Positions 51,001-54,000 of a DNA stretch of 64,000 bases are shown here, piece after piece. The position numbers are program-made. Source of the stretch: Escherichia coli (GTDB taxonomy: Bacteria > Pseudomonadota > Gammaproteobacteria > Enterobacterales > Enterobacteriaceae); NCBI RefSeq assembly GCF_030013595.1, contig NZ_CP122768.1; one strand, 5' to 3'. Numbering within the stretch: the first letter of the stretch is position 1; every line of letters starts with the position of its first letter.

Positions 51001-54000
51001 GGCATTTCTCTGGTATAACTGCTCCGGTTGTCTCTGGTTATCATGCCTGCGGAGAATGGCTTCAGGAATTCCGGCAACTCACGGCATGTTTCATCAGTGC
51101 GAGGACCAAAAGTGTAAGCCAGCACACCGTCAGCTTTGGTCTTATACGCGTACCAGTGCCACTGCTGACGAGCTTTGTTTTCGACAAAACTCCATTGTTC
51201 ATCAAGTTCACAGATAAGTGCCACATCGACACTGGCGGCTGGAGATATGGTTACTTTACGTGGTGAGCGTTTTTTAAAGTGAGAATGACGGTGTTGATAT
51301 CCACCTTCAGCGTTCTGGAGCTATCGCGAACCCCGGCTCCGTTATGAACCATTTCAACAATTTGCTCTTTAATGCCTGGTTTTCGGGTTTCGTAGATGTA
51401 ATTCAGTTGAAATACACGTTTGCAGGATTAGCACTGGAAACGCTCATGATCTGAGGTGCTGTGATCATAACGGTACACTTTATAGGAATTACAGCGGGGA
51501 GAATATACTGTAACTGTTGCCATATGGTCTCCAGATACCAATAGAATACAACATTAATCTATCGTCAGAAGGCATCACCGGGGCCTTCTGACATAATCTG
51601 TTAATACGTGTACTATTACCCTGTTCAGAAAATATTGATTCAAAAATGAAAACCAGTTAACAGAAAAGCAAAATGATATAATGTTAAAATTTTATATAGC
51701 GCAATAAAAGGAGAATGTTATGTATAATTTTATCACTATAATGTATGATGTCTTTTCATGTTTTGGTGTTCTGGCTAAAAACCAGAATAGCCGTGACATC
51801 CGAAATATTAAAAATTTTTCCTCACATCAACATTCACTGGGCGACATGTTTGATGAATTAATAAACATTATTGATAAAGAACAAGTATTGAGTAAAGAAC
51901 AACGAAAAGTTATATTTAGGAGATATGAAGATCTCTATGTTAAGCTAATGCACTATTCTGTTTTTACAGACAAAACACATCAAATAATAAAACAAAAATA
52001 TTTTAATGACATTGTACCAATGATTCTCGCACTCGACATCAGGAACACATATCGCCCGGATAATGAGATGGCATTTTACTATCATATTCATTCTTTTCTC
52101 ACTCAGATACCGGATAATGAGGATGATATATATCATGCTGCAAGGACATATCTGCGAAATTACGTTAAGTTATGTTTATCCGGATACACGCCAGCGAATG
52201 CGCATTTCAAAGATATCTTTGATGGCGTATATGAATTCATTCGTAATATTCGCAAAAACAGTACACCAGGAAAAACAAAACTTATCGCAACTATCAACAC
52301 ATGCAAAGAAACCTGTAAACATCTGCTTTATTTAAGTAATGAAGACAAGGAAAAAATAATTTCTGACTTAGATAAAGTTCAGGTTGCATGTTATTATCTC
52401 ACTATATTACTGGCTTTCGAAAGACGAACTTCATTAACAAGCATCCTGGCAACTTTATATAAAATGCTGATAAGCGAAAGAGAAGTTTCAGAATATGAAT
52501 GCCAGTTATTATATTTAACCAACCCAATAGATGTAATGAATATACTGAACAAATACATATATTACTTTCCTAATGAGAACTCACCATTTTATACACTGAA
52601 AATTGACAGTGCATTATCGTGGGATGCCATTGACGCAATACGAGACTATAGTATTTCTGATATTTATCTTTATCCTGAACAAAAAACAATAAATTGTGTC
52701 GTTGAGATTGAAAACATTGTCTTTGGCGGTTACATTTATACATTGAACAACGGCGTCACATTACAAAACATAGAAAACTCTTTAAAAGATTCTTCATGCC
52801 ATTATGTCTTAAATGGCTATACAGAATTTGTTAACTGTTTGAGACAACTTACTTCAGGAAAGACTGAAAGTGTTCATCGCACCATCAATAAACTGAACTA
52901 TGAGAAATTACCTTTTGGATTTATCATTGCCGCGTTTGCTATACTAAAGATAGCATTTAAAATAAAATTCAGTAAAAATCATGTAAATATCCGAGCATTA
53001 TTAAATGACATCAATTATTTTATGACTTATCAGGGCGAGTCCATTAACCTTATTTCACTGGATCACGAATACCCAGAGTCCTGTCTTCAAAATGACACAA
53101 ACACATATTTATTAGGAAGAGTAATATTTCTGTATAACTCAATGATTTATAAGTTCATAAACTGTCAGGAACATGAAACCAATAACATTCACTCAGCTAT
53201 GATAAATAACCTATTACAGGAAGTTGATATAGCCCTTGGTAAAATAAATGACATTATAGACAGCAGAAACATATCAGCCCCCCATGAACTGGCAAATATT
53301 CTTACCCGCGAAAAAATACTTACAACACGGGAAAAAAAAGGAAACCTGATAAGCCTGTTTGATGGATTCACTTTATTCCATTGTGTTGGAATGATAACCT
53401 TTCTTATCCATTATCTCAGAACACCTGAAGAAAAAGTTGAAAATATATTTATGTTATATGGTGCAGATAAAAACAATAAACTACGCAGAAGACTGATTTA
53501 TGACGCACTAGGAATAATTCAGTCTCAGCAGGAGTGAAGAGTTAAACAGGCAAATTATTTTTTATAAAAAGGGGATTGTTAAGTAATCCCCTGTTAATCA
53601 AAATACGCTTTCCTGACGATCTGATAATTATCAGCTCAATACATTTGACATAAAAGCGGTTTCTTAATTACTACTGCTACGATCACATATCAAATCATGA
53701 TCGTACAATATACATTTTCACTATTATTTATTCACAATTTGAGACATCACATAATCCGCCCATGCCTGCATCATCGGTACACGCTGCTCCAGTAGATCAG
53801 TACGATGATATGCCGCCTCAACCTTATTTTTCAGCGTATGAGCGAGCGCCCTTTCCGCCAGATCCCGCGAATACCCCTGTTCGCTACACCAGTCCCTGAA
53901 TGTTGAGCGAAAACCATGTGCCGTGGCAACTCGCCCCGGAATGTCACTGCCGGCTTTCTTTTTACGCAGAAAACTTGTCAACACCATATCGGAAAGGATC

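Follow-up and report, generated by a model that had tools for sequence, protein, structure and literature searches.

A family of all-helical proteins without known relatives occupies a cassette slot beside alpA in integrative islands

The Stl master repressors of SaPIs, which are encoded divergently from the operon for excision and replication, diversify rapidly and serve to sense helper proteins; they are about 250 amino acids long and have an HTH at the N terminus, and each known SaPI encodes one. PICMI satellites are built on a core of int, alpA and a gene for a DUF3987/DUF5906 'primase', in which AlpA acts as the principal activator and replication has the support of the DUF3987 protein (PMC10803314). 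In PIME1 islands, a LuxR-family regulator is encoded divergently from alpA, and excision and replication depend on both genes (bioRxiv 10.64898/2026.01.12.698999). The SRL PAI carries, in order, int (orf1), a YfjI-like gene (orf2), rox (orf3, encoding an AlpA-type RDF) and orf4, which was described as having 'no similarity' (PMC6980539).

Here we analysed a 64,000-nucleotide stretch of Escherichia coli contig NZ_CP122768.1 (the window), which contains an end of an island of around 87 kb inserted in serW next to clpA. The integrase of this island is reportedly 99% identical in nucleotide sequence to that of the SRL PAI (PMC3064760). Cargo in the window includes a TOTE AEP-helicase; repA, trbJ, trbL and traJ are not annotated in the 42-kb stretch of the island for which annotation was examined, nor are psu, delta and sid annotated. 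An earlier note on this DNA had singled out a long intact ORF with a strong ribosome-binding site, AT-rich relative to its surroundings, adjoining a P4-type integrase and separated from alpA by an IS1-family remnant, and each of these features was confirmed (Table 1). The GC content of the ORF is 0.324 (int, 0.49; alpA, 0.455; window, 0.479), and the probability that 605 codons would stay open at this composition is about 1e-21.

Table 1. Features of the island end that carries the 605-aa ORF (window coordinates)
Feature	Position	Strand	Basis and remarks
yfjJ / YagK family gene (inovirus Gp2-type protein)	46853..47416	-	annotation
yfjI, coding for a DUF3987 replication protein; a 1-bp insertion near 49105 splits it	48237..49687	-	analysis of the window sequence
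alpA (Phage_AlpA, Rox-type excision factor/regulator)	50312..50608	-	annotation; Pfam PF05930 on identical-length gene in L021
GTCTGCGTAAAAAAATGG, remnant of the conserved control region between alpA and ORF, left on the alpA side	50666..50683	+	alignment, motif search
IS1-family relic, ends GGTAATGAC...GGCATCACC, transposase frameshifted	50817..51579	-	annotation; ends read from sequence
AT-rich leader DNA, confined to this E. coli lineage, from IS1 relic to ORF	51580..51719	+	alignment with canonical loci
Extended -10 element TGaTATAAT, putative own promoter of the 605-aa ORF	51674..51682	+	read from sequence
Shine-Dalgarno AAGGAG of the 605-aa ORF	51708..51713	+	6 nt upstream of ATG; read from sequence
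605-aa ORF	51720..53537	+	ATG start
Hairpin then T-run on minus strand, likely integrase terminator, between the convergent ORF and int	53570..53592	-	scan of sequence
P4-type tyrosine integrase of the island	53724..54926	-	convergent with ORF, 186 bp apart; annotation
14-bp direct repeat CCCCCTCACCGCCA (reverse complement of TGGCGGTGAGGGGG), island end	55087..55100	+	sequence; PMC3064760

The ORF is a real, expressed gene under selection. Its product has been detected in cells without induction of island excision (PMC3681748). Comparison with a 94% allele, which also carries the IS1 relic, gave an omega of 0.185 at a dS of 0.19, and values of 0.24–0.30 were obtained for family ORFs in other lineages; the closest allele pair showed a dN/dS of around 0.9 on 18 changes. 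Copies in E. coli are of very recent origin (at least 99% identical across 1010 records), so intactness alone says little, and some copies are frameshifted or disrupted by insertion sequences. Decay in related islands, which the earlier note had named as evidence that would speak against its proposal, was not borne out: the ORF is intact, expressed and under purifying selection. We also rejected a shorter allele class in the form of the 541–546-aa '95%' clusters, because both of the two examined carry a frameshift near codons 520–540. One allele (P0019/L021) has a single-base deletion at nt 1613, after which the normal C terminus runs on in another frame, and a second (P0005) has a similar break near codon 521; some of these clusters stem from fragmented assemblies.

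The protein had been called an orphan, and this description does not hold. An exhaustive HMMER search recovered 34 cluster representatives, around 20 of them full length with 20–35% identity. The full-length relatives span Enterobacterales and Aeromonas, with conservation along the entire length down to around 20% identity across orders, and Foldseek listed family members from Leclercia, Pantoea, Hafnia, Salmonella, Shigella, Providencia, Edwardsiella, Proteus, Aeromonas, Tolumonas and Burkholderia, together with an E. coli member of 930 aa that bears the name 'HTH domain-containing'. Word-indexed protein searches with the family profile and with P0051, a fused member from Aeromonas, added neither new distant relatives nor domain annotations. 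Searches of phage and plasmid collections found no family member in phage records or outside the alpA-adjacent slot described below, the plasmid matches being confined to E. coli records that resemble chromosomal segments.

The absence of a recognisable motif, also stated in the earlier note, was upheld in every library. In Pfam, the best i-E for the 605-aa protein was 3.1, and no family reached E<=0.001 in any of 18 members. The best NCBIfam E-value was 0.14, and the family domain of five other members had no match; the sole significant NCBIfam match in those five was IS481-like and fell on the N-terminal extension of P0051. The 605-aa protein had no match in PHROGs (best E in other members, 0.007) or among PDB sequences, and neither it nor ten distant members matched a defence model in PADLOC-DB v2.0.0, which covers systems described up to 2023. 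These library searches, run with the 605-aa protein and as many as 18 relatives, found no nuclease, protease, NTPase, TIR/SIR2, pore-like, effector or enzyme domain in the family. Abi_2 and HEPN had no Pfam match in the members searched, and invariant or nearly invariant alignment columns held no Arg–His pair at Rx4-6H spacing, a weak test that uses sequence only. GerE/LuxR was not matched by the 605-aa protein in NCBIfam or Pfam, and a recognisable HTH was absent from it and from 16 of the 18 aligned members in Pfam. The exceptions are the Aeromonas subfamily (P0051), which shows a fusion of the family domain with an IS481-type HTH/transposase N terminus that is catalytically degenerate, and one other member with a marginal HTH_73 match (i-E 0.085).

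A confident structure model of the 605-aa protein (pTM 0.84) is a compact, entirely alpha-helical globule. Three fold searches, covering the AlphaFold DB and the PDB, returned no global match, only generic or local helical bundles and uncharacterised family members. The profile and structure searches that the earlier note had proposed yielded a previously undescribed family of all-alpha proteins of around 600 amino acids, and neither an annotated homologue nor a known fold. Both ends of the family alignment are conserved and the middle (residues about 200–360) is variable. Some UniProt fragments of the family are automatically named 'Membrane protein'; a conserved helix, LPxGY..AFAI..ALKIKL (residues 397–415), has a Kyte–Doolittle value of 2.04 in the 605-aa protein and of 1.07–1.76 in the other members in which it ranks among the top three windows.

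When distribution across islands was examined, the family proved to be confined to one slot of integrative elements built on an alpA–DUF3987(YfjI)–YfjJ module. OI-43/48, the SRL PAI and CP4-57 all have this module as their backbone, and PICMI satellites possess its core as well; ROD21/EARL islands, which have a different backbone, were set aside. The family gene is divergent from alpA–DUF3987(YfjI) at a distance of around 100 bp in all 41 canonical loci (9 from distant homologues, 26 metagenome loci and 6 genomes, the last being the yield of a genome-collection scan with a six-sequence alignment subset). The gap between the ORF and alpA is 76–104 bp, except in three loci with gaps of 146, 205 and 280 bp. 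In relatives, the integrase is found either across the module from the family gene or at a distance of several genes, whereas alpA is the invariant neighbour, so proximity to the integrase is incidental. The slot is filled by the family in 35 loci, is empty in 19 palindrome-bearing alpA–DUF3987 sister loci and in about 4 is separated from alpA by around 1.3 kb of uncharacterised sequence; in K-12 CP4-57 it holds the unrelated yfjH. The gene is therefore an element-specific, optional cassette, and its product is not essential to the module, because the 19 sister loci function without it. Hence, of the earlier description as integrase-proximal cargo, the accessory status stands and the link to the integrase does not.

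Several features tie the cassette to alpA. The intervening control region of around 100 bp is conserved between loci whose ORFs share just 30% or so identity, and contains no sigma-70 consensus promoter that we could find. Divergence of the ORF correlates with that of AlpA (Mantel r=0.80, p=0.0008), and the two co-occur almost one to one in E. coli, where the ORF is present in 1036 genomes and this alpA allele in 1028. The ORF is the fastest-evolving gene of the module and the one with the lowest GC content in all loci compared: in one pair its product is 83% identical, compared with 94% for DUF3987 and 99% for AlpA, and in another clade the values are 34–37% for the ORF and 65–70% for its neighbours.

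At its other end, the ORF of canonical loci is followed by a perfect palindrome of GCTAC repeats with arms of 14–22 bp, located 10–93 nt past the stop codon (up to 162 nt where the ORF match ends before the C terminus). The arms covary, with 9 of 17 pairs changed on both sides and none of 500 shuffles scoring as high, and the palindrome stays with the alpA–DUF3987 module even where the ORF is missing. We rejected a canonical intrinsic terminator, because no T-run follows the palindrome.

The window departs from this arrangement. Its module lacks an equivalent palindrome, and the ORF is cut off from the alpA control region by around 240 bp of AT-rich DNA and the IS1 relic. This relic is fixed in every E. 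coli copy examined, and the annotations of three related genomes give it a frameshift and an internal stop; the AT-rich leader has no equivalent in canonical loci, in which the ORF begins directly after the control region. The TGaTATAAT element is probably the ORF's own promoter in this lineage, judging from its sequence; a consensus promoter scanner that demands a -35 match did not list it. The lineage retains the core trio of int, alpA and DUF3987, with yfjI frameshifted in the window and intact (477 aa) in O26 strain 11368.

Our best guess, which we put forward tentatively, casts the 605-aa protein as a sensor or adaptor without enzymatic activity that would adjust the AlpA switch for excision and replication. 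A conserved partner in the island (AlpA, YfjI or control DNA) would be contacted by the conserved regions at the N and C termini, and the variable middle would read a variable input, such as a protein of a helper or invading phage or of a plasmid. In the window, the ORF would now be transcribed from its own extended -10 promoter, so that any regulatory effect there would have to be exerted in trans. We counted in favour of this AlpA-switch proposal the gene's position, the control region, the co-divergence with AlpA, the HTH fusion, the conservation profile, the expression without induction and the precedents, as well as the lack of an enzyme signature in any library and fold matches limited to local helical bundles. 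Against it stand the 605-aa form without a detectable DNA-binding domain, the sister loci that work with the slot empty and the rapid evolution and AT-richness of the gene, as is often seen in conflict genes. Purifying selection also persists on the ORF despite the lost control region and the frameshifted yfjI, which a function independent of the module fits at least as well. A broader version, which we consider rather unlikely, is that the whole family is a new input module for the induction of islands and satellites: a large helical sensor placed back-to-back with alpA, the hypervariable middle of which would detect an incoming phage or plasmid protein and which would then gate AlpA-driven excision and replication, and hence island spread or host protection, on a backbone common to EHEC OI-43/48, the Shigella SRL PAI and the islands of UPEC-lineage strains (ABU 83972) and Nissle 1917.

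A close rival, possible if somewhat doubtful, is that the protein takes part in conflict from an island hotspot, as a single-gene anti-phage or anti-plasmid defence, an anti-defence protein or a helper-interference factor. Such a protein would target foreign proteins with its variable central region, independently of the AlpA module, consistent with an ORF that stays intact and selected despite a broken yfjI and a regulatory region divided by an IS1 relic. Optional occupancy of a fixed slot, the variable middle, the low GC content and the faster evolution than that of its neighbours point the same way, as does the K-12 occupant of the slot, yfjH, which in a screen blocked the toxin of retron-Sen2 (bioRxiv 10.1101/2020.06.22.160242). 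Nearby cargo is likewise conflict-related: the TOTE AEP-helicase in the window, type I R-M and SMC-like ATPase genes in one locus (L003) and abpAB in CP4-57. However, none of eleven members matched PADLOC, no effector-type domain or conserved Rx4-6H was found, and the restriction of the family to one slot, away from phage records, would be uncommon among mobile defence genes. The role in defence or virulence that the earlier note had suggested is neither shown nor excluded by these results.

We regard as improbable that the protein is an accessory of island replication or transfer, such as an origin- or oriT-binding or loading factor that works with the DUF3987 protein and the Gp2-type YfjJ on the adjacent palindrome. 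The covarying palindrome just past the ORF stop, its bond to the module and the HTH-fused subfamily are consistent with this idea, but elements that have the palindrome and no ORF are frequent, the lineage of the window retains the ORF without the palindrome, no DNA-binding or NTPase domain is detectable and the divergence is unusually high for a core replication factor. Hitch-hiking of a gene without current function on successful E. coli islands would suit the youth of the copies, the dN/dS of the closest pair and the disrupted alleles, but is very improbable given the omega values, the conservation across orders and the reported detection of the protein.

Around one in five sequenced E. coli carry the gene at the mobile end of islands. 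Carriers include EHEC O157, O26, O103, O111 and O145, ABU 83972 and Nissle 1917, and the cargo of these islands comprises tellurite resistance, urease, Iha, toxins or defence genes. Excision of these islands still takes place, at 1e-3 to 1e-4 per cell (PMC3064760). A fast-evolving protein wired to alpA is a concrete, genetically tractable candidate for inducer sensing by AlpA-controlled islands and satellites; if it were a defence or anti-defence protein instead, it would constitute a new single-gene system with a new fold. The fixed cassette slot, from the alpA control region to the covarying palindrome, provides a reusable landmark for this family of elements.

With HTH master repressors of the cI, Stl or SetR type, the family shares a divergent gene and a common control region (41 of 41 canonical loci); unlike them, it is not present in every element, as the 19 empty loci show. 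It differs from Stl in size (around 600 aa), in the lack of a detectable HTH in most members and in being missing from many sister elements. The PIME1 regulator is similarly divergent from alpA in a P4-integrase island, but the family lacks a LuxR/GerE HTH, is optional and has no sequence or fold relationship to it. Like PICMI and the defence hotspots of P4-like satellites, the island combines a small mobility core with variable accessory genes at fixed positions; its slot occupant, however, is not a known defence system and, by the PICMI criteria (PMC10803314), it lies in serW rather than fis and measures around 87 kb rather than about 6 kb. CP4-57 has the backbone closest to that of the window (YfjI 42% identical), and its yfjH lies in the corresponding place between intA and alpA and is likewise oriented divergently from alpA; YfjH is a 318-aa protein without a Pfam family, unrelated to the family described here, and homology was rejected by hhalign (probability 0.06%). 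A close counterpart is orf4 of the SRL PAI carried by Shigella flexneri 2a. Its published gene order matches four loci at dgcT/ycdU (L004–L007), in which a 607-aa family member (P0026, around 30% identical) is divergent from alpA, and from this order we infer that orf4 is probably a true member of the family. It would then sit in the canonical setting, with the 100-bp control region and the palindrome, both of which the copy in the window has lost.

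The 605-aa ORF proved to be a real, expressed and selected gene of a new all-alpha family. At its A+T-rich composition, the computed chance of 605 codons staying open is about 1e-21, and its GC content (0.324) lies below that of the integrase (0.49), alpA (0.455) and the whole window (0.479). The earlier note had described a long, intact, AT-rich frame with a strong ribosome-binding site, lying beside a P4-type integrase and separated from alpA by an IS1-family relic, all of which we could confirm. On the basis of the ORFs and RNA landmarks of the window, together with the annotation of the equivalent O26 island, this DNA was identified as the right end of OI-43 of E. 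coli O157:H7, the tellurite/urease/iha island found at serW next to clpA. ARAGORN found no intact tRNA anywhere in the window. An orphan mini-array of two type I-F CRISPR repeats around one 32-nt spacer lies between clpA and the island end (repeat, in reverse complement, GTTCACTGCCGTACAGGCAGCTTAGAAA; the outer repeat is degenerate). Elsewhere, a protein with an archaeo-eukaryotic primase domain and a DEAD/ResIII helicase, annotated as a TOTE conflict system, is probably defence cargo adjoining the mobility module.

Features of the window and of loci (L handles) read for relatives of the ORF or for the palindrome
Feature	Position	Strand	Remarks
EHEC sRNA Esr41	2257-2330	-	Rfam gathering-level match inside island
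STAXI RNA	25534-25685	-	Rfam gathering-level match inside island
5' ureB sRNA	33179-33457	+	Rfam gathering-level match inside island
TOTE-type protein, 794 aa	44338-46722	-	
yfjI (DUF3987)	48237-49687	-	split into 48237-49085 and 49103-49687
65-aa ORF	49888-50085	-	
alpA	50312-50608	-	
Control-region remnant	50666-50683		GTCTGCGTAAAAAAATGG
IS1-family relic	50817-51579		decayed target duplication GAGGCCCT / GGGGCCTT
Extended -10 element	51674-51682		TGaTATAAT, within the 140-bp stretch ahead of the ORF
Ribosome-binding site	51708-51713		AAGGAG, 6 nt ahead of the ATG
605-aa ORF	51720-53537	+	ATG start
P4-type tyrosine integrase, 400 aa	53724-54926	-	convergent with the ORF, 186 bp apart
Island direct repeat, 14 bp	55087-55100		cf. 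PMC3064760
RtT-type repeat element	55144-55278		Rfam RF00391, adjoining island end
Second copy of serW-derived 14-bp direct repeat	55265-55278		CCCCCTCACCGCCA, inside RtT-type element
CRISPR mini-array	55331-55408		
Rfam CRISPR-DR4 match	55381-55408		
Palindrome	L002:5676-5711		
Palindrome	L026:7870-7913		
Palindrome	L004:9867-9902		
Palindrome	L025:8130-8169		
Aeromonas veronii P0051 gene	L014:2467-5067		

The ORF is common in medically relevant E. coli. Its DNA was found in 1036 of 5426 complete genomes (at least 99% identity in 1010 records), against 1028 E. coli genomes with the window's alpA allele, and carriers include EHEC O26, O103, O111, O145 and O157, ABU 83972 and, on the evidence of the alpA allele that co-occurs with the ORF, Nissle 1917; the protein cluster at 90% identity holds 8,897 member sequences. 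Decay in related islands, which the earlier note had named as evidence against its reading, was not the pattern observed: in a spread sample of 40 rows, all but three (two IS insertions and one fragment) were annotated as an intact 'hypothetical protein', and dN/dS was 0.185 at a dS of 0.19 in comparison with an allele of 94% identity in which the IS1 relic is also present. The same comparison gave 0.058 each for the integrase and alpA. Omega was 0.24-0.30 in other lineages, and the closest ORF allele pair gave about 0.9, a value resting on only 18 changes. Both of the 541-546-aa variants examined were frameshifted near codon 520-540, one by a single-base deletion.

The description of the protein as an orphan was not borne out. 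HMMER, run exhaustively against 1.84 billion representatives, returned 34 matches, of which about 20 span the full length and are 20-35% identical; the members added by Foldseek, every one of them 'uncharacterized', come from many Enterobacterales and from Aeromonas, Tolumonas and Burkholderia. The absence of a recognised motif did hold: sequence and profile searches of Pfam, NCBIfam, PHROG, PADLOC and PDB gave no family matching the query or its relatives, and both family and fold are undescribed. The gene was not found among 50,697 phage records, and in the plasmid collection it occurred only in four E. coli records, all resembling chromosomal segments. Conservation is high over residues 1-130 and 380-580 and low over about 200-360; a conserved helix (397-415) is moderately hydrophobic, and the predicted model is a compact globule. 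In the subfamily of P0051 from Aeromonas veronii (866 aa, same slot beside alpA), an N-terminal extension of about 310 aa has a match (E 2.5e-11) to an IS481 transposase, covering the HTH and the opening section of the catalytic (DDE) core. Because its TDNG motif is replaced by TGKN (by eye), the extension looks like a domesticated DNA-binding module that is apparently catalytically dead. Foldseek also lists a 930-aa E. coli member named 'HTH domain-containing'.

The family is confined to one slot adjoining alpA, in one family of integrative elements, and is optional there. In all nine distant homologues examined (P0023, P0025, P0026, P0027, P0029, P0030, P0051, P0054 and P0055), the gene is divergent from alpA, beyond which follow a DUF3987 (YfjI) gene and then usually a YagK/YfjJ (inovirus Gp2-type) gene. 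The same arrangement recurs in six genomes (Edwardsiella, Kluyvera, Xenorhabdus, Enterobacter, Citrobacter and one mis-binned MAG) and in 26/26 metagenome loci with both ORF and alpA on the stretch, where start-to-start gaps are 76-104 bp, with one of 280 bp. The gene is integrase-proximal, as first proposed, in the window; in most of these loci the integrase is located elsewhere and the decisive neighbour is alpA. The intergenic region of about 100 bp (consensus ...GAGATACTGTCCCCGTAAAAAAACGGAAACCAACCGGAGG-ATG) is conserved even between loci with ORFs no more than about 30% identical, and the lack of a sigma-70 consensus promoter in it suggests activator-dependent promoters. Published work on related elements indicates the task of the alpA-DUF3987 module. 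Excision of PICMI satellites has AlpA as its key activator, while their replication is supported by a DUF3987 'primase' (PMC10803314). The SRL PAI has an AlpA-type excision factor, Rox (cited in PMC3014918), and OI-43/48, with an integrase sharing 99% identity with the SRL PAI enzyme, still excise at 1e-3 to 1e-4 (PMC3064760).

At canonical loci, a perfect palindrome with arms of 14-22 bp lies 10-93 nt 3' of the ORF stop (extending to 162 nt if the ORF match does not reach its C-terminus). It takes the form GCTAC-N4-GCTAC / GTAGC-N4-GTAGC with four invariant GCTA cores, and its spacers covary: 9/17 pairs changed on both sides and 94% of cells were paired, a level reached in 0/500 shuffles, with slid controls at 12-59%. 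Since it lacks a following T-run, it is not a standard terminator. Of the loci found when we searched public metagenomes and viral contigs for the palindrome, 81 were read. A family ORF ends just ahead of it in 35; in 19 it stands upstream of alpA across a gene-free interval of 103-257 nt; in about four (L035, L042, L047 and L112) its upstream distance from alpA is about 1.35 kb, enough for a different gene; in about a dozen it is near the DUF3987 gene, mostly just downstream; and the remaining 11 gave no information. The palindrome is therefore part of the alpA-DUF3987 backbone, of which it may be an origin or other protein-recognition site, and the family of about 600 aa is an optional cassette filling the slot between it and the alpA control region.

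In the window lineage, the ORF has become uncoupled from that control region. Only the alpA-proximal part is left, the alignment breaking directly past it, and the distance to alpA has grown to about 1.1 kb, comprising about 100 bp of AT-rich DNA, the IS1 relic and a further 140 bp. Every E. coli copy examined, the 94% allele among them, has the relic fixed at this one site, which marks it as an old insertion common to islands with different cargo. The palindrome was not found in the window, where the likely integrase terminator hairpin takes its place 3' of the ORF. The cassette is thus cut off from its canonical cis context, and it stayed intact and selected despite this loss. The window's yfjI, a gene that is intact (477 aa) in O26 strain 11368, is split by a 1-bp insertion. 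A separate 65-aa ORF, annotated in strain MB31 as a 'DUF3987 domain-containing protein' fragment, repeats the N-terminus of the DUF3987 protein and is a relic of rearrangement between alpA and yfjI.

The ORF is the lowest-GC gene of the module in every locus compared (0.32-0.39) and the fastest evolving. In one set, the ORFs share 34-37% identity versus 65-70% for DUF3987 and 75-79% for AlpA; in a closer pair, the values are 83% for the ORF, 94% for DUF3987 and YfjJ and 99% for AlpA, and the ORF has the highest dS of the module (0.35), suggesting a mosaic history. AlpA and ORF divergences correlate (Mantel r=0.80, p=0.0008). Our tentative proposal is that the protein might be a non-enzymatic sensor or adaptor tuning the AlpA switch, that is, control of island excision and replication; its conserved ends would bind an island partner and its variable middle a variable input. 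A close rival, itself rather doubtful, is a conflict protein acting in defence, anti-defence or helper interference. Such a role would suit an optional, AT-rich gene with rapid turnover at a hotspot, kept in a decaying module near conflict-related cargo, and a screen identified yfjH, which fills this slot in K-12, as blocking a retron toxin (bioRxiv 10.1101/2020.06.22.160242); however, the protein matches none of the known defence models or effector domains, and its family is strictly limited to this alpA slot. An accessory role in origin function or transfer is improbable, and the lack of any current function very improbable.

CP4-57 of K-12 has the YfjI closest to that of the window (42% identity); its equivalent slot holds the unrelated yfjH and the palindrome is absent. 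For a sensor or adaptor of the AlpA switch, the closest precedents by position are SaPI Stl and the LuxR-type regulator of PIME1 islands, which is likewise divergent from alpA and is required, with alpA, for excision and replication (bioRxiv 10.64898/2026.01.12.698999). Unlike either, the ORF protein lacks an HTH and is absent from part of its element family. An accessory or regulatory gene wired to an island excision regulator is a known type of role; the family and fold of this protein are new.
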